Positions 14,024 through 59,243 of a DNA stretch of 64,000 nucleotides are shown piece by piece; position 1 is the stretch's first letter, and the number at the start of each line of letters is the position of its first letter. This DNA comes from an uncultured bacterium. GTDB taxonomy: Bacteria > Omnitrophota > Omnitrophia > Omnitrophales > Abzuiibacteriaceae. Under the pieces are notes generated by a model. The model saw only the letters and a list, made by a program, of their open reading frames with translations. It ran no database searches and had not been told where the DNA came from. Both the position numbers and the translations under genes were made by a program. The stretch spans positions 32,001 to 96,000 of the forward strand of contig CAYLXA010000003.1 in assembly GCA_964387845.1 (NCBI GenBank), written 5' to 3'.

Positions 14024-14078
14024 GAACCCCCCTTTCTGAGGTGAAAGATATCCATTTAAAAATGAAGCCTGTCATTTT

Positions 14079-19016: not shown

Positions 19017-19017
19017 T

Positions 19018-35551: not shown

Positions 35552-37111
35552 TTAAAGTGTCCTAGCGTACTCATTCCGCTTGAGTTTCCAAACGGGGACG
35601 CCGCAGAAGCGGTCGCCTTCGGGGCAAAAGGGCTTAGTGCCGCCGCGCTCGCGAAGGCCGCAAGGCGGAAGAATGAATTGGGTGATGCGGGGATGGATTT
35701 TGGCGACTTCCTCGACTTCGTCCAAACACATGCGCCAAATTTCTTCCTGTGCTGTGTAACAAAGCCGCGTCGTCCATTTGTGGTGAAGGTTCAAAAGATC
35801 GCCCGATTCTTCGAAGCGAATCGGAAACGCGTTCGGCAGCAAATACATCGCAAATTCGGGCTTCACACCTTGCCCGAGCAAAATATTAATGTTCTGCCAA
35901 ATAACGGACATTGTTTTTACGTATAAATCGTTTGCTTCGGCGCATTCGGCAATTAATGGCGGCGTGATAAAATCAGGAATCTCGGCTTGGAAATGCGAAA
36001 ATAAAATCGGCCGCGAGCCGGGCGTCATGCGGTGGCGCTGGTCTTGAGAGTCAGCCGTATGTGAGAGTTTTTTCATGAATGTGTAATGCGGATGCGAAAG
36101 TGTGCGCGTGAGTTTCGATAAGGAAGACAAATTCAAAGCTTCTTTAAAATACGTATTTTTCTGCGGATCCAAAACCGCCAAAATCGCGTCCGAATCGCTC
36201 AAATCCCGCTTCGTTAAACCCAAAATGCTGCGGACCGACTGTGCCAGCACCGCTTCGGAATTTACTTTATAATCCACAAGTTTCGATGTTTTATTCCCGA
36301 GCCGTTCGTCAAATTCCTTCACAAACGCGTTTTCGGGAACTTCCGTGATGCTCCGCTCGTAAACGGAAAACATTTTGTATTCCGGCGTTTCCGTGAGAGG
36401 AATCGGGTCTTCGATATTTTTAAAGAAAAGCGGATCGATTTCGTTCACAGCATCGATCATTTTTCCGACGACGAGATTTTGTTCGTATGGCGTATCGAAA
36501 ACGTTCTTTAATTTATTGTAACGGTGCAAAGTCAAGCCGCTAATCGTGTGATACAAATGCGCATAAGTCGCGATCGGCAGAATGTAGCGCGCAACTTCCT
36601 GCACTTTTTTCTTGATGGGGCCTTTCCATTTTTCGGGATCTTTCGAACGCACCGGAAAGATTTTAAAATAGTGTTTCTCCGTATCCTTCCACAAAATTTC
36701 AATCAACTTGTGATACACATCCATCTGTAAATTGGCTGTTGCGTGATACGTCTCAAGCAAATGTTCCGGAAGAGGCGGCGTAAAATAAGTGCCGGGCTTT
36801 ACGGCCACATAGCGCTGGCTCACCTGTTCGGAATTATAGAAAGTGTGATTGTGAAGAAAGCTCCAGATAAACTGGCGTGAGATTTTCTCGAGCGTAAATT
36901 GAAATGTGGAGTGCTGAATCGTTGTGTGGTGACCGGCTTGATAAATGGATTCGGCGATTTTGTCGCGCAGAGCAACCGCTTTATCGTCTTTGTCGACTTC
37001 TTCCGTGGAAATCACGCGCGAAGAATAGCAAGTCCGCGCCGTTGCGACCGCGTTATTGAACGGCTCTTTGAAGGAATTGATAAGGGTTACGACAGGCTGT
37101 TCTGAATTCAT
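35552..37111 (-). CDS. Long-form ThyX-like (FAD-dependent thymidylate synthase family) protein, tandem pseudo-dimer
   Basis: 519 aa; N-half has ThyX-like block GHHTTIQHSTFQFTLEKISRQFIWSFLHNHTFYNSEQVSQRYV (HNH where RHR is expected), C-half has RHRMTPGS. Confidence 0.5.
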   Translation of the reverse strand: MNSEQPVVTLINSFKEPFNNAVATARTCYSSRVISTEEVDKDDKAVALRDKIAESIYQAGHHTTIQHSTFQFTLEKISRQFIWSFLHNHTFYNSEQVSQRYVAVKPGTYFTPPLPEHLLETYHATANLQMDVYHKLIEILWKDTEKHYFKIFPVRSKDPEKWKGPIKKKVQEVARYILPIATYAHLYHTISGLTLHRYNKLKNVFDTPYEQNLVVGKMIDAVNEIDPLFFKNIEDPIPLTETPEYKMFSVYERSITEVPENAFVKEFDERLGNKTSKLVDYKVNSEAVLAQSVRSILGLTKRDLSDSDAILAVLDPQKNTYFKEALNLSSLSKLTRTLSHPHYTFMKKLSHTADSQDQRHRMTPGSRPILFSHFQAEIPDFITPPLIAECAEANDLYVKTMSVIWQNINILLGQGVKPEFAMYLLPNAFPIRFEESGDLLNLHHKWTTRLCYTAQEEIWRMCLDEVEEVAKIHPRITQFILPPCGLRERGGTKPFCPEGDRFCGVPVWKLKRNEYARTL

Positions 37112-42731: not shown

Positions 42732-45700
42732 TTACGCCGCTTTTCCAAGTACGGCGCGGCTAAAGAGCGTATGCATGAGTGAGCTGATAAATTCCGAGCT
42801 CGGATCGATCACGTCGCCCAACGAACGGAAATTGAACGAATCATTATGAGCGATTAGAAGCTGCGCAGCCTCAACGGCTCCCGGTCGGCCCAAAACTTTT
42901 GGAATATCACGCCGCGTGAGTTTTGAGAATAAATCGTGCTCGCCAATGGCCACAATCCGAGTCGTATCGCCTTTTGCATTGAGTTCATGTTTTAAGCGGT
43001 CGATTAAAATATTGTACGCTTGATCCGCCGAAAGTTCGCGGCCGACACTCAAACGCTCGCGCGTATAAAGCTGCAAGCGCGATCTTTGCCCGCTTTGCTT
43101 GCCAAAAATGTCGGCGTTTGGAAATAACTCTTCAACAGCCCTTTCGGCAACAAATGTGTTATCAAATTCGGAAGCGACAACCGAAAATTCGATTTTTGAA
43201 CCGGGATTTGCACTCATATCCGCCAAAATCGCTTCGCGCAATTCCGAACGGTTCTTCAATTCCTCAAACGAGATTACAATATTCCCCTTCACGTTTGACG
43301 GAATGCTTGCTTGATTCGCTTCACGCCTCAATTCAGACCGGGATTCTTGAGTTTCACCAAAAACCGCCTTAAGTCGATCCAAATATTGTGTCCGGTAAGC
43401 GCCCTCCGGAAAGTCTTCCAACTCGTCGGGATGGCTGCGGGCGGCGTCTGCTTCCTGTTCGACCTCATCGCCAACCCGTTCATCCTCTAAATATTCTTTG
43501 ATCACCTTCGTGGCCGCTTCAAGCTGTGCTTGGGTAATTCCCAATCGTTTAGGTGCTTCCAAATAAATTGCGATCGGTGTTTCATATATTGTGAAAAGCG
43601 TGGTGGCGGTTATCCGGCTTGAAAAATGATTCGCCGGATTATTTTCTTCACCAATCCAATAACGGACACCTGCCTCGATCAAAGGCAGTGTCAAGCCGAG
43701 CAATATTCGGCTTGGGCCTTCATGCAAGCCGGCAGCGTGATTTAAAACTGCGTGTTCAAGATGAAAAGAACTGTTGTCCAAACGGCTTTCAAAATGATCT
43801 TTAAATTCATTCCGGATATGCTCGATCAATGCCTCATCGCTTGTGCGCAATTCAGAGCGGGATTCGTCCTTTCGTACAAGAGCGCTCTTCCAGCCTCTTG
43901 ATTTTTGGCCGTCAGCGCCAACCGCCATCAGCATGTTGCCAAGTTCGTACGTTTGTAAATTGGTCCTGCCAAATACAGCATTTGTTAAAATTTTTACTTG
44001 CACACTTTTATCTTCGATTTCTGAAATTACTTTTAAGATTGGATTAGCATTGGTTAAAGCATCTTTAATGATCCACCTCGCTAAATATTTTGGAAACTTT
44101 AAGAAAAATTCTTCTTGTTCCAGAAAAGTCAAATCAGAAAATTTTTCATCCAAAATTCTGATCAATTCATCCGTTGTTTTGACCTCGCCAAATCTTGGCC
44201 AAGCCGGGAAGTTTTCCTGAATAAATTCTTGTATTTTTAAAACTCTTTGTGCATCGTTAGAAAATTTTTGTCCTTTTGTTGCTTCTGAGATTAACTGATT
44301 TGTCAGAAGGCGTGGATTTTCTATTTGATATAAATTCGAAATTTGAATTCTTTCATCTTTGGATAATTCCGATATTTTCTGCCGAAGACGGCGTTCTAAA
44401 TCCATATCTTTTTCAGGATCAATAAAGGGCAATTCGTAGAATGAGGCGTCTGCTAAATCAGGATGATGACGGGTTAAATAAGTCAGTAAAATATCTTGGA
44501 TGCTTCTGTTTTCCAAAGGTACGTTGCCATCGCCAAATTCCCGCACTAAGAGTTCTTTTTTATTTGAATCACCAGATATTAATAATCTATTCGAGGCATC
44601 AATAAAAACTTCCGGAATAATTCCGGGGAATGCGAGAACAATCTCTCGTCCTTGCCGGAAACTATTCGGCTGAAATTTTTCCTGTGCCCAATCCGGAATA
44701 TCAGTTCTTCCCCAAAGTCCGCCTGCTTCACCCATAAAATCCCGTTTTAATTCTCTTTCTAAAGACTCAAATGAAACACCAGCGCGCAAAAGCCAGCTTA
44801 ATTTGGTCCGCGCTTTCGAGAAAGTCATGTGATAAGGAATATTAATGGCGCCTGATTGCGAAACATTTGAAACAACAGGGATTTTCTTCCTTTTCAAACT
44901 TTGAATAGTAGCCCTGATATATTCGATCTCGGGGTTCTTTGAAAAATCGCCCTGGATAACAAGTCCTGCCCGAACGCCGGCTTGCTCTGCGTGCCGCTCG
45001 ATTCGATTGCCGGCTTGAAAGAGCACCAGCGCAGGCGTTGTTTCATCTATAAGCAAATGCTCAACATAACCAAATTCTTCATTTTTATGAAACTTTGGTT
45101 GTTTTTCTAGATTGGCCAATTTGCTGCTTACTGTTTGTAAGAAATCCATATCGAAACTGATATTTCCCTTGGAATCAACGGCGCCGATTGCTTTTCCATA
45201 ACTAGCAAAAAGACTCCCTTTTGAAGACGAGTCCGTTCTGATCTTCGAAATAAGACTTCCGAGATAGATTTGACTGTCAATGACAACATAGACCAAATTT
45301 GGAATATCTGTACGTTTTGCAACTTCTTCAGCTGCTTTCAAATTTAATATCTTTTCCTTTTCATTAACCGTGGAAGATCCTGTTAAAACAATTCGTGTCG
45401 GTAATGATCCATCAAATTCAAGCGAAAGAACCAGGCCTGTTTCTGCCAAGGTGTCGGTTCCGTGCGTGAGGATAATTCCACCCATTTCTCTTTGAGAAAC
45501 CTTGATCTCTTCGGCTAATGTCGTCTTCCTCGAGATTTCATCTTTGATATGATCAATTATTTTTTCCCATTCTTTCGGGCCAATATTCGTACTATCCGGA
45601 TTTTTATCGAAAACACTTTTGTAAAAAACAGTATTCTTTAAATGCGTTAATAAAACTCTTACCGCATCAACAGTCTTCCGCGCAAATTCGCCGATCATAT

Positions 45701-48700
45701 CAATCGTTCCGCCGGCATTTAAGATTGAAACGCCGGACAATTCTTTCTGAAGTTCTGCAATACTTTGCCCGCTGCGCAATTCGGATCTCACGTTTTCTTC
45801 AACCGGCTCTTCGGCATTCGGCTCATCGAGCTGTTTCAAGACGCGGTTTGTGGTAGCAATCGAATCTTCAAAAACGCCCAGCTCTTCCTTCGCTTTTTTC
45901 AATTCTAATAATTCCCTTGCCTGATCTTCAGGAAGTTCGACAATCCGGTCTTTGATTTCCAAAATCTTTTCAAGTCTGTCCGGACTAACGCCCAGCGCTT
46001 TCCTTAAAAATGCGGAATCTTTTAAATAATCAAAGAGCTTTTCGACCGCTTTGGCCATATCAAAAGGAGGAAGGATTTTGATGTATTGATCAATGTCGGG
46101 TGTTTTGTTTTCCCATGCATCTTTCAAGATCGTCACATTCTGGACTATTTTTTTCTTCGTTCCCTTTCCTCCCTTCACCGGAGCATCCACAATCTTGGGT
46201 GCCAATTCGATGCCGGTTAAACGAGCTATTTCCGGCATCCTGGATTCTTTGTTATAAAGCTCTTTTCTAACCCGGTAAGGCAGCCGCATAACCAGATCTG
46301 CATGAATACGAGCTCTTAATAGTGCTTTATACTCAGGGCTTCCGAATTCAATCGGTTTTTCGGGTTCAGGCTCTTGCGTGACAGAGGAATTTTCGAATGA
46401 ATCGACTAATGGGGTTTTTCCTATGATCGCCCGGGGTATCTCCAAACGCCTATTCGTTACCGCTGCCTGGCGAGCGTTTTTAGGTAAAAATTTATCGGCG
46501 AAATGCGGCGGATACGGATCCGCATTAAGTTCTAGAACCGTTTCGCGCCTAATCCCATAAATTAAATCTGAAGTCACATTCAATATTCTCGCCAACTTGC
46601 CCACTAATCTAGTAACTTCGGTGAATTTGACTTGTTTACTCCCGGAAAGCACTGCGTGAACATGCCCATAGGTTTCTTGTATTTGATTAAAAAGCTCGCT
46701 GGTAGTGATATGAGTAATGCCTCTTGCTTCAACAATGATTCTAATTCTGTCCCAATATGTCAAACTTGGATCAAACAAAGATTCGATAATGGCTGGCGTA
46801 AGAGCATAAATCGTCCATTGATCAACCGGAGATGCTCTTTCAATTTCCGAGACAAATGGTGGTTGCTGTTCTGGTTGGGGCGCTTCGGAAGCAGTTTCTG
46901 GAGTACTATCAATGTTTTTTAGCATTTCCGACAATCTAAGCGGCAACATTTCTTCTGCAGTTTCTTCTATCGTACCCGTCAGGGGTTGTTCTTCTGTTTC
47001 TGAGGGTTTAGCTTCAGTCAAAACTTCTTGTTTTACCAACTCAAGTTCTTGCTCGGTAGTCAAACCCAATCGTATGGAAAACTGTTCAAAGAGCATGATT
47101 TCTGGCCCTAAGATCCTTCTGATTTCTTTACCCTCTTCGCTTTCAGGAGTGTGGAGCAATTGTGCAAACTCCAAAGTATCTACTAACACTTCCCGGCTGG
47201 CAATACGCGGCCCCCCAAATGCGGGGTTGGTCGGCGGTACAAACAATAAACCTCGGTCAATCATATGCTGCAATGCTTCACCCATACGGGCTCCGCCGAT
47301 CGTGGTACCGAGCCGCGGATGCCAAACGACGTCCTGCGATTGGCCTTCCGATTTCGTATAAATTTCTTCCCAAAGAATCAATGCAATCAAGAGAGGCGCC
47401 ATTATCCTGCCTTTGTTCGGCCCGCTTTTGTATTTGAAAAGAACGTCGGGATCCTTCAGTAAAGTATCGGGAAGCAGATATTCTTTCACTGAAAATTTCA
47501 AATATTCTTTCAATGCGGCTTGATCCACGGAAAGATTTTCAAACGGTTGGTCTGGATTTCTGTTTAAGATTGCTTCTTCAATTTTTTTGCGAACCTCCGC
47601 ACCCATTTCATGATCAACTTCGAGCTGATTTTTGCTGTTAAACAATGATTCAAAATCCAACCCCACATGATTCGTGTATTCAGACATAGCTTCTACTTGC
47701 CATGGCTCTAGCTTTTCTGAAAGCCATTCGTGCACTTGCCCTACTCGAATGGTAACGTCCCGGTATTTTTCATCAGAATAAATTTGGTCAACTAATTTGC
47801 TAATTTCTTGAGGGTCTTCTTCTTTGATTGTCTTGAAAAATAAGTTTTCAAGATCGGCATCTCCCGTCAAATGATGAAGCAGCATATACCGAAGAATTGT
47901 TTTTTGCGTATTGCCTGCAAACCGCATTCCTCTCACAGTATCTGAATCCCTCATCTTAGTAATCGCTTTCATGGAGGAGCGCCGGATATTACCATGCATG
48001 CGCTCGACTGCCTGGCGATTAAGTCCGAAAATCAAATAAAGATCGATGATCATAAGCTGGGTTTCAACTGGAAGAGCTCCGCTTTGCTCGAAGCTTCTCT
48101 CAACAGCTTTATCAATCAATCCAATTTGACCTTCAATCAACAAATGTGTACGCCGGCTCGAATCCATCATCGATTTCAAAAGCTTCAATCGGTGGCCTTC
48201 GGCTAACGCTAAATCACGAAATTCGATCTGAAGCGTTGTGCTGCGATTCATTTCTATCTGGCGTGAAAAAACTTTGTCCAGTTTTTCAAACGCTTTTTCC
48301 AAGTCTATCTTTGCCTGGCCGATCAACTCTTCCGCAAGCTCCGGTTCGACTTGATCCACCAAGTGATCGGCTTGGTTTAGTTTTGCTTTTGCCTGGCCTA
48401 AATAATATTTAAACCATTGCTTATAAACTTGGGTTGAAATGTCTTCATAGATAGAACGTAAACGCCAATAAGCTTCTCCCCATTTGCTGGATGTTTGGCT
48501 CTCTTTAAATGAATCATCGTCCAAGAATGTTTTTACGGTTACGGCAACCTTCATCATGGTTTCGTAAAATAAATTAATTCTTGCTTGTTGAATGGAAATA
48601 TCCGATGCGCCGGATAGTGACTTGAAGTCTTTGTGCAAACGCCCGTAAACAGGAGATGTTCTGCTTTCAAAAAATATAGACTCTTTATTTTTAATATCCA

Positions 48701-51700
48701 AAAGAGAAAGCAAAACATCCAACTTTTTTAAGACGGTGTTGAGATGTCTGTTTTGAAGAATGGGCGGGATTCTGGCCGTTAAAGCATGGGCGCCTTCCAA
48801 CCATGAATAAAACGCATTCCGCTCATCAGAAGTTCCCATTAAATCGATAAATTCATCTAATTCCTTTTTTAACTTTACCAAGCTATCAAAGTGGCGAACC
48901 AGGTCGGAATTCTTCAAATCCGAAAGAAATGCATCTAGAAAAGCAGATGATTGAGACGCTATTTTCAACTGCTCTTCAAGTTTCGCCCGGCTTTCGGCAG
49001 TATTTTCGGAGGCCAATGCAGTCAAGGCAGTTTGGCGTAAAGCAGAAATGGATTCTACCTCGATAAACTTTTTGGCCAACTCGTCAATTTTCTGGATTCT
49101 CTGAATAATTTTTTCACTGCGGGTTTTCCGAACAAAAGAAACGGTTTCATTTTCATTTGATTTAACAATCAAATTTAAAATTAACGGCAGGGCTTCCTTT
49201 CTGAAGAATTTGCCCACGATTTTCCGGATCTCATCCAGTTTTTCTGACCGTCCTTTTTCCGGATTATTGGCAAGTTGATTAATGCTCAAAATTCCTTCGT
49301 CAACTTCAAGAAGCCACGAAAATACAGTTTCTATTTCACTTGCGGTGCCTAGATCAGAAATAAATTTTTCAAACCGGCTTTGGATTTCTCTCAGTTTGTG
49401 ATAAGCATCCCTGTTCTCACTTTCGGTAAGACCGTCAAATATTTTTTTCAGAATTTCAAAAGATTTTCTTGCTTCCGATCCAATATTTTTAAGATCTTCA
49501 AACCCTGCAAACGCCGTTTCGATGTCGAATTCCCCGTCACTTGAAGCAGGAATTAATTTGGATAAAACAAATGAGTCTAGATCGGAAAACCATGCGTCTG
49601 AAAAAAATGCTGCATATTGGGGCGCTGCGGCCGCATAAGTAGTTTTGCTGCGTGTGATTTGAGACAGTAATAAATTCCCGCGGCTATTCGCTGATTTCCA
49701 GCTGTTCATATTCATGCTTTCAAGCGAACGCAATTCTGATTTCTTGCTTTCAGCCGCATTCAACGTTTCGGCAATGAACGTTTTCATTACGCGATAGACA
49801 TATTCGGTTTGCTCTTGGGTAGGTTCGCTATTAAGAAAACGATCATAGAATTTGGCGGGATCCGAACCGCGCGGGTAAGCCTGTGAATAAGACAAAAGCC
49901 AGGCGCCAATAATAGATTGTCTAAACGTTGGAAGAGGAAGTTTTTTTAATTGTACGCCGCGGAGGCCGATGTTGACGAAAATAGCCGGCACATTTGCATC
50001 AAATTCTTTCCAACGGCGAAGGCGATGAATCGGCGCAAACCGGTCAAGCTCGCCCTTCCAAGGAATATAATCAATCTTCAAATCCTGCCCGTCGACCGTA
50101 ATTTTTTTCAAATCTTTGAGCAATTCCATAGCTTTAGAAGTGGCAATAATGCGGATCGGAGCGCGCGTTTCGCGAGGGCGTCTTTCCATAAACGTGATAT
50201 GCCAATCCATCATAAACGGAATATCGGGAAATTTTTGATGCAGGACCTGCATGAATTTTTCTCCGATTGGCGCCGGAATAGATTCAAAATTAGGCTGTGA
50301 ATCCGGTTTAATCTCGGCTATCAATTCTTCCGAAAATGCAGCCAACATTTTTTTGAATAACTTGTCCCGCTCTCCATGAAATTCGAGACGTTTTTGAAAA
50401 TCTGCGGCGCCTGCCGACATTTTTCGTTTCGTGCTCAAGCGCCGCTTTTTTCTTTCAGAAGGCCAATCTTTTTCTGCGTCATTTGTGATACGCTTTTGAA
50501 CAATATGCAGCAAGCGACTATTGATTTCATTACCGATTAAACCTTCCCGATCGGAAGCTTTGCTGAAATGAAAGTCGATCAAATTTAAACTGCTCTGGTC
50601 ATCACTTGTTTCAATTGCACGATCAATATCTTCTATCACTTTTTCCAATGTTTCAACAAACCACCGTTCTTTATCTTTGGAATATCGCTTTGACGCGGCC
50701 CCGTGCTCAAAAATTCTTCTCCCTTCTCTTCTATAAGCTTCGAGCATCCGCATAACACCCCGGTAAATCAAGTTGGTCTCGCCGACCGGCGTAAAAGACG
50801 ATCTCCACCTGCCGATTGCAGCATACCCGCCAAATTCTTGTTTCAAATCACGAATCATTGCTGCCGTGCGCTCCAAAGGATAATCACGATCAGTCAAGAT
50901 AAGCGGTGCTGTTCCTTCGGAGGATTTGACCGATTCCAGCAATTGAATTGCAGAACCAATGCTTTCCGGGAACAAATCTTCCGGAGCAAGCAGGCCCAGC
51001 TCAAACATGATTTGATTAAAAATGGTGCGCTGAGGGCCTCTCAGGCCTTTTATCCATGGATCTTTTTCGTAAATGGGCCGGATGCTTTTTGCGGTGATAT
51101 TGCCGTCTTCATCGCGATATTGATTGAATATATCGTTTTCGATTAAATATTCGATCGTGTTGTTTAAATAATCATACTGACGTAGCGTATCGGTCCATAA
51201 CAATAGAAGAAAAACAAGTTCGGGAGCCGGTTTTTGAAAGGGCATGAGCTGCTCGATTAATTCGTCGGATTCAAGAACTTTTCGGTAATAATCGACTAAA
51301 TTTTCAAATTTGGGATCTTTTATTTTATATTCTCCGCGATCAAACTTGCGAATAACTCTCCTAAGCACTATTCGAACGTCGTGCTTGAGCAGGGCTTCAT
51401 ACGCATACAACACACGTGATATTTTGTTGTCATAATCCCACGACGGATTTTTAGCAAAATCACTCTCGATCGCGATAAGGGTCCTAGCAATCAAACTTGC
51501 TGCATACATATTAGACCCCGGCAGCGGGTTGCCATACATGAGATCGGTTACATTTGGATGGACAATGTTTCCTGCGCGATCTGTCTCATCATTGGAAACA
51601 ACTTCATTGGGGAACACCTGATCCATAATAGCTTCACGGCTTCGAGTCCTCCGGTATTCTTCCCGTGCCCATTCTAAACGTTTTTTAAGTTGCCACCCTT

Positions 51701-54700
51701 TCGACCCTATTCCCAAAACAGACAACAACATCGCAATTGCATAATCCCGATAACCGACGTTTCCGACCATTTCAAACCGCAGCCTTGGATTGATTGCACG
51801 ATTCAGCCGGCGTACTACTTTTCGAAGAGAATGTTCATTTGCGTATTGAAACGCCGGAATTTTAAGTGCGATCGTGCTTGGAAGGCCCGCCTTCTCTTTA
51901 ATAGCACGCTCGTAATGATTTTCTTGCTCGTTTTCCGCTAATCCTGATAAAGCATGAAATATTTTCCTTTCGGCAGAATCCTCAGACTCCAAATAAGCAT
52001 GCCAAGCACGAGATTCAAATCGCCCCCACAAGTTTCCAAGTCCATGAAATTGGCTTTGAAATGCAAAAACCTGGCTTGCGCTCGCCATTTTATTTAGATG
52101 ATAACTGGCTTCGACAAGTTGACGATAAATATCGGGCAGGCCTTTTGAAGGCGTCATTTTGTACCGTTCTAGAGTTTCAAATGCGGCGTTCTTATGATAA
52201 TCAAAATAGAATTCGTGAATGCTTATGATTAACTCTCTGGTTTTTTCTTTAAAAACATCAATGGCGTGCGATTTCCCAAGCCCCATTGCGAGATCATAAA
52301 ACGATTGGAAGTACCGCGATAACCCCTCTGAGACTGCAAACCGGAGTCTCGCGTCGGTCTTGGATTTTTCGAGCAACGTATTTGTTATATCGCGAACAGG
52401 TTCAAAGAACACTTCCAACTTTGATTCGACGTTACTCTTTTTATTTCTTTTTGTACTGCCCTTTTTGATGTTGGCTGTCGCCAAACTAATTAAAAATTCT
52501 TGTGCGGTCTTTTGAGAAAAAGAATTGATGATGTGTTCCCACAAAAATATTGGTACTTTGATTTTAGATTTTGCACTCTGCACTAAATCTAAAAACATCC
52601 TTTCGGTCATTCTTTTATGATTGAAATTTTTTACGGGCAATACACGCACGCCGGGAATCGACTGAATTAAGAAATAGCTTTCTCTTTGGTCCTTATCTCC
52701 GCTTGTTTCTAACTTGCGGCTCGTAATGAGTTTGACTCTCGCAATAATTTTTAAGTCTGTTTGTTCTCCTCCGCGTGCAATCAAGAAACCATCTTCACGG
52801 CTTGGATTTAGTTTTATATCAAATTTTAAATCGTTTTGATTCTTTTCGCCGATGATCTGTTGGATTTTGTCCAAATCTTTCTGCCGATGCCATGCGGATC
52901 TGATTCCGACAAGAGAACCGCCCACCGATTCAACTCGCACTCTTGATATTTGTTTAGGGACAGATTCAACACGAATATGCATTGATTCGGTATTGCCATC
53001 CTCGTCAAAAACAACTGTAAATGTGCGACCGTGGCCAACTGAAACTAACTGCCGACCCACAAATCTTTTGGTACCAATCCGCTTCGCTTGAGAGATCAAT
53101 GCATCATCCGATCTGAGTTCAGACTTTTTTGTGGCCTGTCTTATTTCAAAATACTGCTGATAAAGTTCCTGAAAACTCGGCGTTTCCTGGATTTCAAGTT
53201 CGATTTCTCTAGCCATGTCCACTGCAGTGTCATTCAGAATATTTTCGTATGCACCAGCATCATAAGCTTTCTGTGAATCCTTACCGATTTCGTCCAGCCA
53301 TTTCCTCTCTGCCGGAATCCAGTCTTTATAATCATAAAAAATACTTTCGACATCCTCATAGGCCGTGAAGCGGATTAATTGTTTAAGAATAGCTAAAACC
53401 GCAGGGCTTACCGCAACGCTAATTGGAACATTGGCGTATTTACCTTTCATGTAGATTAAAAACAGCATGAACCGCCGCCAGCCAGCCATTTCGCCGCAGA
53501 TACTGACTTCCAACCCTGCCGCGCTCGCATGCTCAATGATTGTTTCGATCTTTTCAAGAAATGTGGAAAGCAATTCTGTGTACAATCTTCCGCCATATTC
53601 ACGGTCCCGGCCGAATGTTTGTTGCAATAAATCATTGGTGCCGATAGAAATAAAATCGACGTATTTCTTCTGTGCGATCACCGGAAGATTTTCAATGGCT
53701 TTGTTGGTTTCGATCATAATTCCGAACGGAATTTTGATCCGGAAGCGATTAAGATCGTGACGAAATTTTTCTAACTCCTGATCAAAGATAGTCCGGACAA
53801 ATATTACGTCATCCTCAGTTTGAACCATCGGTACAAATACTTTGACCGCAGATTCTCTTCCGGTTTCTCCTTCGGCGTGAAAATGCTCTGCAGCCATAAT
53901 GCTCGCGCGAATTGCCGCTCGAATTTGAGCTCTCAAGATCGGTTCGCCTTCCGTAGGATCCCTGTAAAGATCGAACCCGATTTTTGTATTCGTTTCTGAA
54001 ATGGCTGAAACAGGCTTGTCCAGCTGACGGTCTAACGTTCTTACCGCAAATGCGCCACGTAAGATAATCCTGCCCTGAGATAATATTTGAGTAAGATCGT
54101 CTTCATATTCTTTTATATTTGCTTCCCAGGATTCGTGGCGGTAGAAATGCGTAGGGAAATTGACTTCGGTTCGATAGAGCCGCACACCATCCGTATCTGC
54201 GGAAAGCTCTTGAATATGTTCAAGCGCATCCGCACTTCCGCTAACTTCCATCAACAGTGAAGCAACGCTGTCTTTCTTTGCAAACACAGGTTCTAGTGCG
54301 AGGGTTTTTGCCAATTGCAAATACGCTTCTTCCTTGACGATTTTCTGTTCATATTCGGCAGCATCTTTTTGTGAAGGATTGGCATGCAGCATTCCGTTTT
54401 CCCCGTCCGCATAAATGATTTGCCCTGACTTGATATCTGCAAACTTACCTAGTTTGGCCTTGAGCGCGGTAAGAACTAAGATCCCGTAATTAGCGCCGAC
54501 AATAACCCAATGTTCGGTGGGAGATCCAAACTCGGCTACAACCGCACCCAAATTTGGGTAAGCTTTTTTTAGACTTAAGAGAGTCGGCGCATTCATCGCT
54601 CCTGCCAAATACGGCTGTTCTTTTGAGACTTTTAAAATAACCACCAAATGATCAACTTTATCCGTCGTAAATTGCTGATCCGACACCAATTGCCGCGCCA

Positions 54701-57700
54701 TTTTTTCGTTTAGAATCAAAACTGCGTCTTTTAAAAGAACTAAAATATTTAGCAGCGTTTTCTCCTGAAGATCGGATGTGTCTTCAGAACTCATCTTGGT
54801 GCCGATATCCAAAATCAACTTTTGATAAGCATATTGGAGCGCAACATCAGGATACACATTTTTTGTATTGATTAACCAGCTGGTTTCTTCTTGAAATCGA
54901 TCAAGAAGCTCTTGAAATGAATACTTATCCGGCATGTTGTCGACAGGCGCTTGATCAACTAATTGGTCAGCCGCTGATTGAAATGCGCTTGCTATTTGAT
55001 CGTTGTATTCTTTGATTTTCTCTTGATAGAGTTCCTCGGACATTCCTTCCATTTTAAAAGACTCGCCATAGCTCAAAAAACTCATCATCCGGTAGAGCGT
55101 GGAAAGGATTTCCCTATTTCGAGCCTTGATCTGTTTTTCTTCATCCGTGCCCTCGGTTCCCTTGAGAGATTCGATGGCATTATGGATATCTTTAACAATT
55201 CTAGGAATTGGCTGGCCGGCTTTTTCAAGCTGTGTATAAGCATTGGGGTGCGCATACAACTTAAACGCATCGAAATATGAGATTTTTTTGTCCTTCAAAG
55301 ATTCCATCACTAATTTTATTGAATCGGTGTTATATTTAAAAAATTGCCATGTGATTTCTAATGCTTTTGCATCACGCAGACGCCCTTTTTGCTTTAGATC
55401 CCGAATTCTAATTTGAAAATCGAAATTAAAAATATCTAGAATCGCTTTAAAATGTTGCACATCACGTTCGGCAGCTTCAGGGCTAAGAATGGCAGGCTGT
55501 TTAAATTTGCTGCTAAATTTTTCCAAACTCTCTCCTAGCGCTCTGCTCGACCACAAATAGTAAATCTGAAAACCAACGCTATTCACTTTTGATTTAATTT
55601 CTTCTTCAAGAAGATGATCCGCTCTTTTCCCTTCGCTTTCTATTTTTTCCAGAACAGAATCTTTCAATTCGTCTAAAACTTGCAGTAAATTTTTGTTCGA
55701 TTGGTCTTCTTCCAAAATCATCCTGTCTATCTTTTCTGAAAATTTTACCTTTTCGATTCTTATCTTTTCTTGAACATCTGGTTCTTCATCCAAATTCGAT
55801 CTCAACGAATAAGCAGCTGTAAAAAAGTCGTCTGCCTGGAAAAGCATCGTGGTGCCTCGAAATACACGCCGGGCCTGATTTTTATTGCCCTGCATCAGAA
55901 CGGTTCGAAGTTCTGATCTTTTTTCCGATTCGCCTTCGGCATCACTTGTTTTGCTTTTGGATTTTTTCTCTTCGATCATTTCTTCAATGAGATCCAGCAG
56001 ATCTGTTAGTTGAGGGGGCAAAACTCCTTCGATTGCGTCCATGCTCAGCCCTGTATTCGCAATCACTCTTGCGATTATTTCGAGAGCGCTGTTTCCTGTA
56101 GAAACCGGATTTGCATTTATAATTGCCGCTATTTCCTCGTCATTTACTGATTCTTCTTTCGGGTCAAAATAAGAAGCGATTCCGGATTGCGCAGCAGGTT
56201 TTTCGGATTTGTTTTCTGCTGCTTGAGGTTGGGTTTGCGGCTCTGCCGGCTGTGCTGATTTGGCTTTTTCAATGACGAGTTGAAAAAAAGCGTCTCTCTG
56301 GTTTTGCTTTATCGATTTGAATTGATCATTTATAAACTTAGCGAAGGTCGATCCTGCTCTTAAGGGAAATTTATTCACGCTCGGATTCCCTTGTTTATAT
56401 TCGCTTGCCAATGCGCCACTCTTGTTAGCGTCTGTGATAATTGTCCGCTCAATTTCTGTTAGGTTGCCTTCCTTCCCCTCGGCAAGTTTCACAACGCCGG
56501 AAAAAAATGCTTCCACGTTTGCCTGCTGCGTCATATCTGCCGGAACTCCCGCCGCCCAATCGATCAATTTTTGGATTTGCGAATTGACAGCCCGCAATTC
56601 AGAACGATCGTTCTTCTCAGATTGTTGAGAAGGTTGTATAGAAACTGCATACGAGGCCAATTTCGAATCATCAAAATATGCCCTATCAATAAACTTTTCA
56701 AAAGTGGCTTGCCAACCGTCAGGGTTGTAGTAATACTCGGGCAACGATTTTCCTGATTTTGCTTGCACTTCGGATGCAAACCTGAGCAAAGCTTGTTGGA
56801 TAGGAACAAGAAACCGGTTATCAAAATTCTCCGCCGCTGTCCCCGGATTATTTTTGTTGATCAACGCACGCGTATATCCCAATTGCAGCGTCATTAGTTT
56901 CAAAATGTATCTTGATTTTTTCCAGTTCTTATCATTTGCGGCATCACGAAATCTCGATGAATCATAATGAAGGCGCGTTAATGTTGCCGCAAGTGATTCC
57001 GGATATTGATCCCTGGAGACATAGCGGACTTTAAGCCAATCAGATGCAACATCATCTAAAAATACCGAAACAACTCTGTGGGGAGTTTGTTCAATAACAA
57101 CCGACTCTGGATCCTTGAAACCAACCACCCCATTCTCATAAGCAAGATGGCCGACTTCGTGATACACATGATAATCGCTTACCCATTCAAATAACCGTGC
57201 CCTGTCTTCCTTATTTCCAATCTCACCGTGGTGGATAATTTGATGCTGGAGCATTGCCATTCTGAGTGAAATTCGGAGTCTGCGATAAGTTTCGTCATAA
57301 ATTAACGAAAATCCTGTATTGTCAGCCATAGATTCCGAATCTTTCATTTCAGCCGAAAAATTGATAGAGGGTGTCTCTAAAAATTTCTTCAACTCTGCCG
57401 GTAACTTTTCATAACTCTCAGAGGTTCGGCTTATCATCAAAAACGAATCCAAAATCTCTTCCATACTTAAATTGAGCTTCTTGAGTTCGCGATAAATCAT
57501 GATTAGCATAGAAAAAATATTTTGGCTTAATTTGTCAGGAAATTTACTTGTTGAAGATGGGATATAAAGGAATGATGATTGACCGCCTCGATAGGCCGAA
57601 ATAATAACATCAATTGGCCTTGCAAAAAGCCATCTTGAAAAGTAAATAAGCATCACTTGTGTAAGTTTTTTGATTTGAGACAGGTTGGGAAATTCTGGTT

Positions 57701-59243
57701 GTAAACGCAATTCCGATCTGTGTGAAATTGGATCTGCAGAATTAAAATATTCCTGCGGATTAAAATCCGAATTAAAAACTTGAAGCGGATTTGAGATGGC
57801 GGAAGATTTTAGAAACTCTTCGAACTTGGGTTTTAGTTTCTCAAAAGTTGGTGTTTCACCGTTCATGCGTTCGTAATAGCGGTCGTAATCCGTTTCCGGA
57901 GAAACTTGCGGCGAAATCAAAACAAACGGAATGTTTTCCTTTCGGAATTTTTCGGTTAGGTCTTCGGCATGAAAACCGCCGGTGACGAGGATAATGCCGG
58001 AGCCCGGCGGTAAAGGGTAAGCGTTAGGCGTTAAGTCTGACTTATCGCTTAACGCGTAACGCTTAACGCTATTTAAGAATGCTTCATCGCGTCTTTTGCT
58101 GGTGGTATAAAACTGTTCAGCAACATTGAGTTTTTTCGGATCTAGTTTTCCTTTGAGAAATTTTGTAATTTCTTTTTTGTGCTGTTGGTAAAATAGAAAG
58201 TCTTCCGGAGTTGCCTGCAGCGAAACGAGCGCTTTAACGGATTTTAAATATTCGCCTTCTTCATGAAGCCCTTCCTCACCTTTTCCGGAAAACAAACGCT
58301 CACGGACACGGTCTTTGAAAAGACTAATTTCACGAAACAAATTTACAGCACCGATTTCGCGGCTGATTCTTTCAAATTCTTTCTTCTCATCTATTTTTTC
58401 GCCGGCTTTCACACCCGTTAAACTGCGCTCCAATAGAACAAGCGATATTAATTTCTCAATCTCATACAAATCCGAGCGCTTGACGCCTTCGTTGCGCCCA
58501 ATATTCGCTAAATGAGAGATCAGCGAAATTAATTCGCCGCGCTGTTCGTATAAGCCCGTTTTTGTTTCGAATTCGAGCAAGCGCTTGTTGTACGTTTTCT
58601 CTTTCGCTTCCTGATTTTCTTTAAAAAGAAAATGGACGGCGGGCAAAAGTTCTTTTTGCACTTCAAGTGCTTTTAAAAATTCCTTCCGGTTTGAATCATA
58701 AAGTGCCGCATCTTCGGCCCCGATTAACTCATAGGACTTGGGGTTTAAAACGGCTTCTGCTTCAATGCCGGTTAAAATAACCTGCTCAAGCCAAAATCGG
58801 GTGGCGAGTTCTTTTACTTTTTGGTTAGGATAATTACGAAATCTGAAAAGATCTGCAGTGCCGGATGCGCCCTCGGCTAAAATCGTGCGGACGCCGAATT
58901 TTTCCGATATAAGCCTTGCGATCTTCTGAATATTCTGCTGAGCGCCCAGGTTTGCGTGAGCATCTTGGATGTAAAAAACTATAGGGGCAAGGGTCATGGG
59001 TCCAGGGTCAAGGTTCGTTCCTTGACCCTTGCTACTTGCTACTTGACCCTTCGGAATAAAGACTTCCGAGACACGCCCCAGAGCTTCTGGAATTAAATTT
59101 CCAAAATCCTGTTGATTAGATATGGGTCTTTGGTAATCAAGAGGCGCTGCATGAGAGATGTCTGCCCAGATAAACGCCACGATTAGGACAAACGCAATAA
59201 TGCGGAGAGCCGGAGAATATTTTTTGTTTTGGGGGAAAAACAA
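42732..59243 (-). CDS. Giant multidomain protein (5,503 aa) with N-terminal signal anchor, HExxH, PEP-utilising-enzyme-like and asparaginase-like modules, nine [RK]SELR motifs
   Basis: Single uninterrupted 16,512-nt ORF; TTG start preceded by GAGGTG; hydrophobic segment LRIIAFVLIVAFIWADISHA; YHVYHEVGHLAYENG; DGVRLYRTEVNF / FISIGTNDLLQQTFGRDREYGG / SICGEMAG; LNAGGTIDM / ILTHGTDTLAETG. Confidence 0.85.
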   Translation of the reverse strand: MFFPQNKKYSPALRIIAFVLIVAFIWADISHAAPLDYQRPISNQQDFGNLIPEALGRVSEVFIPKGQVASSKGQGTNLDPGPMTLAPIVFYIQDAHANLGAQQNIQKIARLISEKFGVRTILAEGASGTADLFRFRNYPNQKVKELATRFWLEQVILTGIEAEAVLNPKSYELIGAEDAALYDSNRKEFLKALEVQKELLPAVHFLFKENQEAKEKTYNKRLLEFETKTGLYEQRGELISLISHLANIGRNEGVKRSDLYEIEKLISLVLLERSLTGVKAGEKIDEKKEFERISREIGAVNLFREISLFKDRVRERLFSGKGEEGLHEEGEYLKSVKALVSLQATPEDFLFYQQHKKEITKFLKGKLDPKKLNVAEQFYTTSKRRDEAFLNSVKRYALSDKSDLTPNAYPLPPGSGIILVTGGFHAEDLTEKFRKENIPFVLISPQVSPETDYDRYYERMNGETPTFEKLKPKFEEFLKSSAISNPLQVFNSDFNPQEYFNSADPISHRSELRLQPEFPNLSQIKKLTQVMLIYFSRWLFARPIDVIISAYRGGQSSFLYIPSSTSKFPDKLSQNIFSMLIMIYRELKKLNLSMEEILDSFLMISRTSESYEKLPAELKKFLETPSINFSAEMKDSESMADNTGFSLIYDETYRRLRISLRMAMLQHQIIHHGEIGNKEDRARLFEWVSDYHVYHEVGHLAYENGVVGFKDPESVVIEQTPHRVVSVFLDDVASDWLKVRYVSRDQYPESLAATLTRLHYDSSRFRDAANDKNWKKSRYILKLMTLQLGYTRALINKNNPGTAAENFDNRFLVPIQQALLRFASEVQAKSGKSLPEYYYNPDGWQATFEKFIDRAYFDDSKLASYAVSIQPSQQSEKNDRSELRAVNSQIQKLIDWAAGVPADMTQQANVEAFFSGVVKLAEGKEGNLTEIERTIITDANKSGALASEYKQGNPSVNKFPLRAGSTFAKFINDQFKSIKQNQRDAFFQLVIEKAKSAQPAEPQTQPQAAENKSEKPAAQSGIASYFDPKEESVNDEEIAAIINANPVSTGNSALEIIARVIANTGLSMDAIEGVLPPQLTDLLDLIEEMIEEKKSKSKTSDAEGESEKRSELRTVLMQGNKNQARRVFRGTTMLFQADDFFTAAYSLRSNLDEEPDVQEKIRIEKVKFSEKIDRMILEEDQSNKNLLQVLDELKDSVLEKIESEGKRADHLLEEEIKSKVNSVGFQIYYLWSSRALGESLEKFSSKFKQPAILSPEAAERDVQHFKAILDIFNFDFQIRIRDLKQKGRLRDAKALEITWQFFKYNTDSIKLVMESLKDKKISYFDAFKLYAHPNAYTQLEKAGQPIPRIVKDIHNAIESLKGTEGTDEEKQIKARNREILSTLYRMMSFLSYGESFKMEGMSEELYQEKIKEYNDQIASAFQSAADQLVDQAPVDNMPDKYSFQELLDRFQEETSWLINTKNVYPDVALQYAYQKLILDIGTKMSSEDTSDLQEKTLLNILVLLKDAVLILNEKMARQLVSDQQFTTDKVDHLVVILKVSKEQPYLAGAMNAPTLLSLKKAYPNLGAVVAEFGSPTEHWVIVGANYGILVLTALKAKLGKFADIKSGQIIYADGENGMLHANPSQKDAAEYEQKIVKEEAYLQLAKTLALEPVFAKKDSVASLLMEVSGSADALEHIQELSADTDGVRLYRTEVNFPTHFYRHESWEANIKEYEDDLTQILSQGRIILRGAFAVRTLDRQLDKPVSAISETNTKIGFDLYRDPTEGEPILRAQIRAAIRASIMAAEHFHAEGETGRESAVKVFVPMVQTEDDVIFVRTIFDQELEKFRHDLNRFRIKIPFGIMIETNKAIENLPVIAQKKYVDFISIGTNDLLQQTFGRDREYGGRLYTELLSTFLEKIETIIEHASAAGLEVSICGEMAGWRRFMLFLIYMKGKYANVPISVAVSPAVLAILKQLIRFTAYEDVESIFYDYKDWIPAERKWLDEIGKDSQKAYDAGAYENILNDTAVDMAREIELEIQETPSFQELYQQYFEIRQATKKSELRSDDALISQAKRIGTKRFVGRQLVSVGHGRTFTVVFDEDGNTESMHIRVESVPKQISRVRVESVGGSLVGIRSAWHRQKDLDKIQQIIGEKNQNDLKFDIKLNPSREDGFLIARGGEQTDLKIIARVKLITSRKLETSGDKDQRESYFLIQSIPGVRVLPVKNFNHKRMTERMFLDLVQSAKSKIKVPIFLWEHIINSFSQKTAQEFLISLATANIKKGSTKRNKKSNVESKLEVFFEPVRDITNTLLEKSKTDARLRFAVSEGLSRYFQSFYDLAMGLGKSHAIDVFKEKTRELIISIHEFYFDYHKNAAFETLERYKMTPSKGLPDIYRQLVEASYHLNKMASASQVFAFQSQFHGLGNLWGRFESRAWHAYLESEDSAERKIFHALSGLAENEQENHYERAIKEKAGLPSTIALKIPAFQYANEHSLRKVVRRLNRAINPRLRFEMVGNVGYRDYAIAMLLSVLGIGSKGWQLKKRLEWAREEYRRTRSREAIMDQVFPNEVVSNDETDRAGNIVHPNVTDLMYGNPLPGSNMYAASLIARTLIAIESDFAKNPSWDYDNKISRVLYAYEALLKHDVRIVLRRVIRKFDRGEYKIKDPKFENLVDYYRKVLESDELIEQLMPFQKPAPELVFLLLLWTDTLRQYDYLNNTIEYLIENDIFNQYRDEDGNITAKSIRPIYEKDPWIKGLRGPQRTIFNQIMFELGLLAPEDLFPESIGSAIQLLESVKSSEGTAPLILTDRDYPLERTAAMIRDLKQEFGGYAAIGRWRSSFTPVGETNLIYRGVMRMLEAYRREGRRIFEHGAASKRYSKDKERWFVETLEKVIEDIDRAIETSDDQSSLNLIDFHFSKASDREGLIGNEINSRLLHIVQKRITNDAEKDWPSERKKRRLSTKRKMSAGAADFQKRLEFHGERDKLFKKMLAAFSEELIAEIKPDSQPNFESIPAPIGEKFMQVLHQKFPDIPFMMDWHITFMERRPRETRAPIRIIATSKAMELLKDLKKITVDGQDLKIDYIPWKGELDRFAPIHRLRRWKEFDANVPAIFVNIGLRGVQLKKLPLPTFRQSIIGAWLLSYSQAYPRGSDPAKFYDRFLNSEPTQEQTEYVYRVMKTFIAETLNAAESKKSELRSLESMNMNSWKSANSRGNLLLSQITRSKTTYAAAAPQYAAFFSDAWFSDLDSFVLSKLIPASSDGEFDIETAFAGFEDLKNIGSEARKSFEILKKIFDGLTESENRDAYHKLREIQSRFEKFISDLGTASEIETVFSWLLEVDEGILSINQLANNPEKGRSEKLDEIRKIVGKFFRKEALPLILNLIVKSNENETVSFVRKTRSEKIIQRIQKIDELAKKFIEVESISALRQTALTALASENTAESRAKLEEQLKIASQSSAFLDAFLSDLKNSDLVRHFDSLVKLKKELDEFIDLMGTSDERNAFYSWLEGAHALTARIPPILQNRHLNTVLKKLDVLLSLLDIKNKESIFFESRTSPVYGRLHKDFKSLSGASDISIQQARINLFYETMMKVAVTVKTFLDDDSFKESQTSSKWGEAYWRLRSIYEDISTQVYKQWFKYYLGQAKAKLNQADHLVDQVEPELAEELIGQAKIDLEKAFEKLDKVFSRQIEMNRSTTLQIEFRDLALAEGHRLKLLKSMMDSSRRTHLLIEGQIGLIDKAVERSFEQSGALPVETQLMIIDLYLIFGLNRQAVERMHGNIRRSSMKAITKMRDSDTVRGMRFAGNTQKTILRYMLLHHLTGDADLENLFFKTIKEEDPQEISKLVDQIYSDEKYRDVTIRVGQVHEWLSEKLEPWQVEAMSEYTNHVGLDFESLFNSKNQLEVDHEMGAEVRKKIEEAILNRNPDQPFENLSVDQAALKEYLKFSVKEYLLPDTLLKDPDVLFKYKSGPNKGRIMAPLLIALILWEEIYTKSEGQSQDVVWHPRLGTTIGGARMGEALQHMIDRGLLFVPPTNPAFGGPRIASREVLVDTLEFAQLLHTPESEEGKEIRRILGPEIMLFEQFSIRLGLTTEQELELVKQEVLTEAKPSETEEQPLTGTIEETAEEMLPLRLSEMLKNIDSTPETASEAPQPEQQPPFVSEIERASPVDQWTIYALTPAIIESLFDPSLTYWDRIRIIVEARGITHITTSELFNQIQETYGHVHAVLSGSKQVKFTEVTRLVGKLARILNVTSDLIYGIRRETVLELNADPYPPHFADKFLPKNARQAAVTNRRLEIPRAIIGKTPLVDSFENSSVTQEPEPEKPIEFGSPEYKALLRARIHADLVMRLPYRVRKELYNKESRMPEIARLTGIELAPKIVDAPVKGGKGTKKKIVQNVTILKDAWENKTPDIDQYIKILPPFDMAKAVEKLFDYLKDSAFLRKALGVSPDRLEKILEIKDRIVELPEDQARELLELKKAKEELGVFEDSIATTNRVLKQLDEPNAEEPVEENVRSELRSGQSIAELQKELSGVSILNAGGTIDMIGEFARKTVDAVRVLLTHLKNTVFYKSVFDKNPDSTNIGPKEWEKIIDHIKDEISRKTTLAEEIKVSQREMGGIILTHGTDTLAETGLVLSLEFDGSLPTRIVLTGSSTVNEKEKILNLKAAEEVAKRTDIPNLVYVVIDSQIYLGSLISKIRTDSSSKGSLFASYGKAIGAVDSKGNISFDMDFLQTVSSKLANLEKQPKFHKNEEFGYVEHLLIDETTPALVLFQAGNRIERHAEQAGVRAGLVIQGDFSKNPEIEYIRATIQSLKRKKIPVVSNVSQSGAINIPYHMTFSKARTKLSWLLRAGVSFESLERELKRDFMGEAGGLWGRTDIPDWAQEKFQPNSFRQGREIVLAFPGIIPEVFIDASNRLLISGDSNKKELLVREFGDGNVPLENRSIQDILLTYLTRHHPDLADASFYELPFIDPEKDMDLERRLRQKISELSKDERIQISNLYQIENPRLLTNQLISEATKGQKFSNDAQRVLKIQEFIQENFPAWPRFGEVKTTDELIRILDEKFSDLTFLEQEEFFLKFPKYLARWIIKDALTNANPILKVISEIEDKSVQVKILTNAVFGRTNLQTYELGNMLMAVGADGQKSRGWKSALVRKDESRSELRTSDEALIEHIRNEFKDHFESRLDNSSFHLEHAVLNHAAGLHEGPSRILLGLTLPLIEAGVRYWIGEENNPANHFSSRITATTLFTIYETPIAIYLEAPKRLGITQAQLEAATKVIKEYLEDERVGDEVEQEADAARSHPDELEDFPEGAYRTQYLDRLKAVFGETQESRSELRREANQASIPSNVKGNIVISFEELKNRSELREAILADMSANPGSKIEFSVVASEFDNTFVAERAVEELFPNADIFGKQSGQRSRLQLYTRERLSVGRELSADQAYNILIDRLKHELNAKGDTTRIVAIGEHDLFSKLTRRDIPKVLGRPGAVEAAQLLIAHNDSFNFRSLGDVIDPSSEFISSLMHTLFSRAVLGKAA

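Follow-up and report, generated by a model that had tools for sequence, protein, structure and literature searches.

The minus strand of a 64,000-nucleotide stretch from an uncultured Omnitrophota bacterium (GenBank assembly GCA_964387845.1, contig CAYLXA010000003.1, positions 32,001 to 96,000; hereafter the window) carries a giant open reading frame (ORF; 42732-59243, TTG start), which encodes a modular protein of 5,503 amino acids (aa) belonging to an Omnitrophota-type family. The pentapeptide [RK]SELR recurs nine times in this protein. Comparison across the family at the sequence level indicated that [RK]SELR is a local flavour of a family-wide junction motif, kept by peptide-level selection. 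We infer, with a probability of about 0.5, that the motifs are processing sites at which an exported modular polyprotein would be cleaved. All features described below lie on the minus strand. An identical protein (P0001) is present on Logan contig SRR15237813_23125.

The number of motif copies was determined in the complete translation. SELR occurs nine times, seven times as RSELR and twice as KSELR, exactly as a preliminary description of this DNA had counted, with Ser at aa 510, 881, 1110, 2041, 3169, 4487, 5130, 5303, and 5333 (pentapeptide starts at aa 509, 880, 1109, 2040, 3168, 4486, 5129, 5302, and 5332). The amino acid composition predicts 0.24 copies of SELR (Poisson p = 5e-12) and 0.03 copies of [RK]SELR (p = 1e-19). 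In 2,000 shuffles of the protein, SELR reached at most three copies and no 4-mer attained nine, and SELR was the most over-represented 4-mer of the protein by several orders of magnitude. Exact counting and permutation therefore agree with the earlier statement that SELR lies far above chance. The intervals between copies range from 30 to 1,318 aa, wider than the 30 to 1000 residues first given, and the ninth copy (43236-43250) falls just outside the coordinates first assigned, which began at 43325. Moreover, [RK]SELR was absent from all other frames and ORFs of the window. BLASTP comparison of the protein with itself, and of its 250-aa chunks with each other, gave nothing below E = 0.05, ruling out an internal repeat or a degenerate domain repeat and leaving the pentapeptide as the sole recurring element of an otherwise non-repetitive protein. 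An Rfam scan of the window found no RNA family.

Relatives of the protein, designated here by P or L numbers, were collected by several searches. A full HMMER search with aa 4401-5503 returned 132 proteins, and scans with N-domain alignments gave 228 confirmed matches in GTDB genomes and 285 in JGI metagenomes. Word-indexed protein searches returned five distant proteins of 500-740 aa with the conserved N-terminal domain (N-domain) as query, one protein with a profile of the conserved C-terminal domain (C-domain) and, with a 5,000-aa query, only the giant protein itself; a genome-contig scan with the giant protein as query returned nothing. Named genome records with the N-domain mostly carry the label Candidatus Omnitrophota or Omnitrophica, with a minority labelled uncultured Planctomycetia. 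The family layout consists of a putative signal peptide, an N-domain of ~450 aa, variable cargo modules, and a C-domain ending in -AA. By pairwise BLAST, the N-domain (aa 1 to ~516) is 40-59% identical among giants, and the C-domain is likewise conserved.

The motif proved to be a property of this family rather than of one protein. Among giants that share the last ~190 aa, SELR is present in eight copies in P0051 (6,402 aa), nine in P0007, six in P0065, five in P0015, and four in P0094. SELR is also the top 4-mer in P0007, P0015, P0037, P0051, and P0065. The general form R-[SA]-E-[LVT]-R followed by a small residue was found in 134 unique instances in 20 giants. In the pooled instances, the first position is Arg in 91%, the second Ser in 51% or Ala in 46%, the third Glu in 100%, the fourth Leu in 51%, Val in 35%, or Thr in 10%, and the fifth Arg in 100%. 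The residue after the final Arg is Ser, Ala, Thr, Gly, or Asn in 66% of instances vs. 28% in the background, and nothing is conserved further out. At 12 loci, motif density was 1.93 per 1,000 aa in the giants vs. 0.07 in neighbouring ORFs. Given the composition statistics and this repeated enrichment in many independent relatives, the notion that chance or composition accounts for the nine copies has virtually nothing left in its favour, and we consider it refuted.

Furthermore, among the giants closest to the present one, the motif takes different flavours in different lineages. The RSELR flavour is shared by L082 (P0065 type), L083, and L084; RAEVR predominates in L085 (ten copies, with two of RSEVR) and L149 (seven copies); L088 carries RAETR 13 times (p = 7e-24); and L150, L101, and L108 show mixed R[SA]E[VL]R forms. 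These flavours cluster on a neighbour-joining tree of the N-domain. One flavour per protein, together with flavour switches of whole lineages, implies a common reader of the motif. Sister clades with the N-domain and without R-x-E-x-R were also observed: L157 (a 3,627-aa ORF), L145, and P0004, and L079 and P0082. In L157, [SA]GFG[AS] occurs 12 times (p = 3e-23), and G-ARLA-[AS] occurs seven times in L079 and nine times in P0082; [SA]GFG[AS] and GARLA may be alternative junction motifs.

Eight of the nine copies in the giant protein (copies 1-8) lie between modules, with independent homology support at only some of the boundaries. Copy 1 (RSELR, aa 509-513, 57705-57719) stands at the junction of the N-domain and module M1 and aligns with KSELR 501 of P0065. 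Copy 2 (RSELR, aa 880-884, 56592-56606), at the M1/M2 junction, has a polar upstream flank and is absent at the P0065 counterpart. Copy 3 (RSELR, aa 1109-1113, 55905-55919), at the M2/M3 junction, aligns with P0065 RSELR 1035, and a block homologous to P0051 begins exactly at aa 1109, which corresponds to P0051 RAELR 4089. Copy 4 (KSELR, aa 2040-2044, 53112-53126), at the M3/M4 junction, aligns with P0065 KSELR 1996 and lies where P0051 blocks end (2047/2018). Copy 5 (KSELR, aa 3168-3172, 49728-49742), at the M4/M5 junction, aligns with P0065 RSELR 3226, and a P0051 block stops at aa 3172, which corresponds to P0051 RAELR 4089-4093. Copy 6 (RSELR, aa 4486-4490, 45774-45788), at the M5/M6 junction, aligns with P0065 RSELR 4554, and the N-termini of stand-alone M6 proteins imply a boundary at aa 4474-4491. 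Copy 7 (RSELR, aa 5129-5133, 43845-43859), at the M6/M7 junction, is modelled as coil and matches P0007 RAELR 2868 at a block end, and copy 8 (RSELR, aa 5302-5306, 43326-43340), at the junction of M7 and the C-domain, aligns with P0065 RSELR 5162.

Copy 9 (RSELR, aa 5332-5336, 43236-43250) is located within the folded C-domain, where it opens the helix that follows strand 1. At this position, RSELR is found in P0075, P0077, and P0117 and SSELR in P0090, and the sequence differs in P0015, P0037, and P0051; in most relatives, a motif lies 15-50 aa ahead of the C-domain. Copies 8 and 9 are only 30 aa apart (43236-43340, aa 5302-5336) and flank a 25-residue piece, REANQASIPSNVKGNIVISFEELKN, which contains the first C-domain strand. 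Two copies are paired in the same way in P0075, at aa 327 and 361. Cleavage at both copy 8 and copy 9 would deprive the C-domain of its first strand. The preliminary description had placed the motifs at module boundaries and had named two examples, both of which hold: RSELR 4486-4490 stands 15 aa ahead of the Pfam asparaginase start at aa 4505, and KSELR 2040-2044 follows the phosphoenolpyruvate (PEP)-utilising module, which ends at aa 1932-1968. The placement holds for the eight junction copies and agrees with the clustering of block ends at motifs described below; it does not extend to copy 9.

Module shuffling among relatives was analysed in relation to the motifs. Conserved N- and C-domains bracket permuted cargo in P0001, P0015, P0037, P0051, and P0065. 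Residues 1109-2047 of P0001 match 4089-5005 of P0051, and residues 2018-3172 match 2965-4093, showing that M3 and M4 are in reversed order in P0051; P0015 shows the same reversal of these blocks. The block edges fall on motifs in both P0001 and P0051 (P0051 RAELR at 4089 and 4998), and the motif was present at the joints examined. In ten giants, 27% of internal block ends have a motif no more than 10 aa away vs. 3% of random positions, and the median distance from block end to motif is 36 aa vs. 222 aa, values that are descriptive only because high-scoring pairs are not independent. In addition, ~30 stand-alone proteins (~630-750 aa; the P0009-P0036 group) match positions ~104-725 of the HMMER query end to end. 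For the eight that were computed, the implied ends are aa 4474-4491 and 5124-5134. These ends coincide with RSELR 4486-4490 and RSELR 5129-5133, indicating that M6 is equivalent to one complete stand-alone protein of ~680 aa.

The N-domain matches are mostly proteins of 480-520 aa (N-domain alone) or 700-800 aa (N- and C-domain, ending in K[AS][AV]), without the motif. These short forms are represented by L003-L035 and others and by P0133, P0134, and P0136. The commonest family form in Omnitrophota is the 700-800-aa N- plus C-domain protein, usually motif-free, and the giants resemble such a minimal protein into which cargo has been placed between the two halves. L106 contains three tandem long ORFs on the same strand (approximately nt 2-3841, 3792-9857, and 9833-19204; >1,280, 2,022, and 3,124 aa), each with RSE[LV]R motifs and an end in -SA or -QA, an arrangement suggestive of tandemly arrayed family paralogues within a single genome.

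The structural character of the motif regions was evaluated using AlphaFold2 models built from small alignments, with a predicted local distance difference test score (pLDDT) of 76 for the N-domain and 72 for aa 5100-5503. A check of whether the motifs lie in linkers had been proposed in the preliminary description; pLDDT is <50 around copies 1, 7, and 8, consistent with linkers, and ~95 at copy 9, which is not a linker copy. The upstream flanks of the nine motifs (15 residues each) show higher polarity than average (p = 0.001). Moreover, the alignment of P0065 with P0001 has 40% identity over 4,870 columns, and all six P0065 motifs fall column for column on P0001 motifs. The motif regions shared with P0065 contain 30 gap columns per 85 vs. 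7.8 in the background (p < 5e-5).

The codons of the motif were also compared. All nine 15-mers differ in DNA, and the three codon strings quoted in the preliminary description are correct and belong to the copies at aa 4486, 5302, and 5129. Its proposal that the peptide is kept up, and not a propagated DNA repeat, is borne out by the nine distinct 15-mers, the absence of BLASTP repeats, and the variation of codons in relatives; the differing 15-mers and this codon variation likewise rule out a DNA-level repeat or recombination site. In this gene, the motif Ser codons are all TCN (9/9, never AGY; p = 0.03 vs. gene codon usage) and the motif Leu codon is TTG in 7/9 copies vs. 29% usage (p = 0.0035). 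The core is thus nearly fixed as TCN-GAA-TTG, with Glu always GAA and the Arg/Lys codons free, and a single base change in TCN yields the codons of Ala (GCN) and Thr (ACN), the residues that alternate with Ser in relatives. Relatives use AGT/AGC for Ser and CTN for Leu at motif sites, and the codon bias of this gene is not seen there. Therefore, the uniformity was given no DNA-level meaning.

The conserved N-domain (aa ~34-483, 57795-59144) is a candidate hydrolase or protease. Its predicted fold matched the Ere-like structures 2rad and 2qgm, TraB (8bqs_DQ), ChaN (2g5g), HopBA1, EreC, and RRSP; a Foldseek search of the N-domain against PDB gave nothing significant, with EreC again the best match. 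Pfam detected no family at E up to 10 in the N-domain, P0133, or P0136, including TraB_PrgY_gumN, Erythro_esteras, and Cofac_haem_bdg, and gave only weak matches to unrelated families in P0135 and P0137. The invariant residues of the family alignment are D94-x-H96, E124, R385, and GGFH425, and D94-x-H96, E124, and H425 are invariant in both alignments A1 and A3. The TIKI superfamily spans proteases (TIKI, RRSP), esterases (Ere), and a haem binder (ChaN). Its active enzymes carry a 2His/2Glu signature, which is E3900-x-H3902, E3930, and H4030 in RRSP and includes H85/E113 in Bcr135 (PMC6254334). The His-to-Glu spacing of 28 in the N-domain equals that of RRSP H3902/E3930 and Bcr135 H85/E113 (PMC6254334). 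Like the TIKI/TraB/PrgY/GumN-Ere-ChaN superfamily, the N-domain has a predicted alpha/beta core fold, an acidic-x-His pair, a Glu 28 residues on, and a second His in G-x-x-H; unlike it, the first acidic residue is Asp instead of Glu, and the model places a helical insertion of ~220 residues between the two halves. Judged by predicted fold and signature residues, the N-domain probably belongs to the TIKI/TraB/Ere/ChaN superfamily.

Processing at the motifs is favoured because complete-enzyme modules, flexible joints, and a small residue after Arg together resemble the grammar of viral polyproteins and MARTX toxins. This reading, one of those put forward in the preliminary description, also draws support from the shuffled cargo, the lineage-specific flavours, and the TIKI-like hydrolase N-domain. 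A dedicated endopeptidase would recognise the motif and cut the exported precursor into separate modules. The protein's own N-domain might be that endopeptidase, a weaker proposal because the N-domain is found mostly in short, motif-free proteins; an N-domain of TIKI-like type with intact signature heads every member. Rather tentatively, the family could consist of phylum-specific self-processing polyproteins, in which a TIKI-type N-terminal protease co-evolves with the linker motif (RSELR/RAEVR/RAETR, and GFGA/GARLA elsewhere) and releases EI/HPr-like, asparaginase-like, pseudouridine-synthase-like, and methyltransferase cargo onto or into host or prey cells. The adhesin precursor suggested in the preliminary description found no counterpart, as no adhesin-type domains were found.

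Several observations weigh against processing by the N-domain or against cleavage as such. A TIKI fold does not imply a protease role, because esterases and haem binders share it. Since most N-domain proteins in Omnitrophota are 480-800 aa long and motif-free, the N-domain has a function independent of the motif, and several N-domain giants have no detectable junction motif. The structure models reach only three of the eight junction copies (1, 7, and 8), and copy 9 sits inside a confidently folded domain. In addition, the cargo resembles cytoplasmic housekeeping enzymes (EI, HPr, asparaginase; pseudouridine synthase in P0037), which is awkward for an exported protein unless, as we speculate, the modules act inside another cell.

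Some of the same features would also suit an uncleaved docking or recognition element, in which each linker shows the peptide to one partner (the protein's own N- or C-domain, a chaperone, or an export machine) and the chain stays intact. Lineage flavours, linker location, and peptide-level conservation suit any common reader; the motif copy within the folded C-domain of several relatives could reflect intramolecular mimicry or binding; and the minimal N- plus C-domain proteins show that the end domains work together cargo-free. Set against this, the spacing tracks module boundaries (30-1,318 aa) instead of following a regular handle spacing, the modules are complete stand-alone enzymes, suiting release, and a small residue after the final Arg is typical of the P1' position of a scissile bond. 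None of these three points is decisive, and docking is a somewhat improbable but serious alternative to cleavage. A post-translational modification site that tunes the linkers, through Ser phosphorylation or glycosylation or through Arg modification, would likewise be a short, exposed, and conserved peptide in flexible regions, with invariant Arg and Glu. The replacement of Ser by Ala in 46% and by Thr in 2% of the 134 instances argues otherwise, the Ala share excluding Ser-directed modification, and no modifying enzyme lies beside the gene, whose neighbours encode a GH1 glucosidase and an MqnA-like protein. Modification is accordingly very unlikely.

The pentapeptide could also be an assembly scar left by cassette insertion, for example a copied boundary next to the C-domain, with little present function. 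The cassettes are clearly shuffled, the core codons in this gene are more uniform than expected, and the first C-domain strand ends x-[SE]-E-L, followed in some members by RSELR, which is a motif-like boundary sequence. Yet proteins only 40% identical retain the exact motif at orthologous joints, within linkers that otherwise abound in indels and substitutions. The codons for Arg, Ser, and Leu vary among copies and among relatives, and every copy has switched flavour in whole lineages (RAEVR, RAETR, GFGA), a change that demands selection or a common reader. Fifteen bases are, moreover, too short for homologous recombination. A scar is thus unlikely, if less so than a modification site. The RxLR, PEXEL, furin, and Tat motifs do not fit the spacing R-x-E-x-R.

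The remaining features of the giant protein were annotated from its sequence and from profile searches. The N-terminus (aa 1-33, 59145-59243) is predicted to be a putative Sec signal peptide or signal anchor, with the pattern KK..R, IIAFVLIVAFIW, and SHA followed by AP recognised by eye; a similar signal-like pattern is present in relatives. The only Cys in 5,503 residues (aa 1916, 53496-53498) is the catalytic-type Cys of the ICGE motif in an EI-like module, and relatives have 0-8 Cys per 2.4-6.4 thousand aa. Cys depletion and the signal-peptide-like N-terminus fit export.

A Pfam scan of the protein in three pieces found only PEP-utilizers, HpcH_HpaI, and Asparaginase, with several further cargo modules left unannotated. 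The PEP-utilising module, which resembles Enzyme I (EI) of the phosphotransferase system (PTS), lies within M3 (aa ~1551-1968, 53340-54593; PF02896, 2.4e-36; NCBIfam PTS_I_fam, 3e-38) and matches EI structures in PDB, with no HPr-binding subdomain aligned. It retains TEH, GTNDL, and ICGE, and PF00391 scored 16.7 bits, under the cutoff of 23.1. The PTS_I_fam score of 131.6 bits is far under the equivalog cutoff of 341.7, so that the module is described as EI-like and not as an EI orthologue. Module M6 (aa 4491-5128, 43860-45773; ~640 aa) is asparaginase-like (PF00710, 7.6e-19) with a GGTI motif (AGGTIDM) and scores far under NCBIfam cutoffs; P0013 and P0009 share the Pfam asparaginase domain. 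Module M7 (aa 5134-5301, 43341-43844) holds a putative HPr-fold domain (NHAAGLHEGPS), in whose loop Gly occupies the conserved-Arg position of G-h-H-x-R-P, and the loops of P0015 and P0037 are canonical. EI-like and putative HPr-fold modules co-occur in the giant protein in separate motif-bounded units, and the pair could be a PTS-like phosphorelay carried as cargo.

The conserved C-domain (aa ~5317-5503, 42735-43295) has a Rossmannoid alpha/beta fold and ends in GKAA-COOH. Its assignment as a HAD phosphatase was rejected, because the structural resemblance is only generic and strand 1 lacks the DxD nucleophile motif. The C-terminal tail is -AA, -SA, or -SV in nearly every member seen, from minimal 700-aa proteins to giants (GKAA here, aa 5500-5503, 42735-42746), including L003-L035, P0015, P0051, and P0075. 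The tail often follows Lys or Arg (GKAA, ESAA, RRAA, KKSV). This two-residue tail may resemble ssrA-type or tail-specific-protease recognition tails. No second copy of the N- or C-domain was found within the window. Elsewhere in the window, two stretches of a 519-aa ORF (35552-37111) match the model of the flavin adenine dinucleotide-dependent thymidylate synthase ThyX (211 positions), and this ORF could encode a ThyX that has undergone duplication or fusion.

Omnitrophota are noted for their giant ORFs, and a strict, lineage-specific pentapeptide at the joints offers a simple sequence rule for splitting them into functional units. The rule predicts processing products and can be used to mine further cargo modules. 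If cleavage occurs, the family would represent polyprotein processing in bacteria by a novel kind of enzyme at a novel recognition site, and it would help in studying how these nanobacteria affect their hosts. The site-specific protease and its tag could then serve as a tool, and a self-processing system of this kind would be the cellular equivalent of the polyprotein grammar of viruses, as well as a new architecture for delivering effectors.

Giant Omnitrophota ORFs longer than 20 kb, which encode numerous transmembrane helices and domains for adhesion or cell-wall degradation, have been described (Seymour et al. 2023, PMC10066038; West-Roberts et al. 2023, bioRxiv 10.1101/2023.11.21.568195; bioRxiv 10.64898/2026.06.07.730766) and called poorly understood (PMC10066038). 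The family described here resembles them in phylum, in its very long and poorly annotated proteins, and in the tie to a host-dependent or predatory lifestyle; it differs in its length of 2.4-6.4 thousand aa, its single N-terminal hydrophobic segment, and its enzyme-like cargo. By text search, SELR, TraB, polyprotein, and cleavage are unmentioned in these three reports, 'motif' is unmentioned in bioRxiv 10.64898/2026.06.07.730766, and asparaginase is unmentioned in the latter and in bioRxiv 10.1101/2023.11.21.568195. A full-text literature search for RSELR matched only the varSelRF software.

Modular precursors with processing sites in their linkers have precedents in MARTX toxins and viral polyproteins. 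In MARTX toxins, linker cleavage takes place after Leu, and the linkers are not known to share a fixed pentapeptide. Like the MARTX toxins of Vibrio and relatives, the proteins described here are giants with conserved ends and a variable, shuffled cassette of enzymes or effectors, and the N-domain resembles the TIKI-type fold of RRSP, a MARTX effector (PMC6254334). MARTX domains are released by linker cleavage, which we infer here. In contrast to MARTX toxins, the giant protein lacks RTX or glycine-rich repeats by Pfam and by BLASTP self-comparison and has no cysteine protease domain (Peptidase C80) by Pfam, its only Cys being that of the EI-like module; the strict five-residue motif at the joints and the phylum Omnitrophota are further differences. 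The family thus falls outside the MARTX definition, for want of RTX repeats and the cysteine protease domain. Compared with the viral polyproteins processed by potyvirus NIa, picornavirus 3C, or coronavirus Mpro, the gene here is cellular and chromosomal, among ordinary bacterial genes; the candidate protease is TIKI-like and neither chymotrypsin- nor papain-like; and module order and content are freely permuted among Omnitrophota relatives. What the two share is a long chain with a short conserved boundary motif, usually followed by a small residue, and a lineage-specific flavour of that motif, as expected from co-evolution with a protease.

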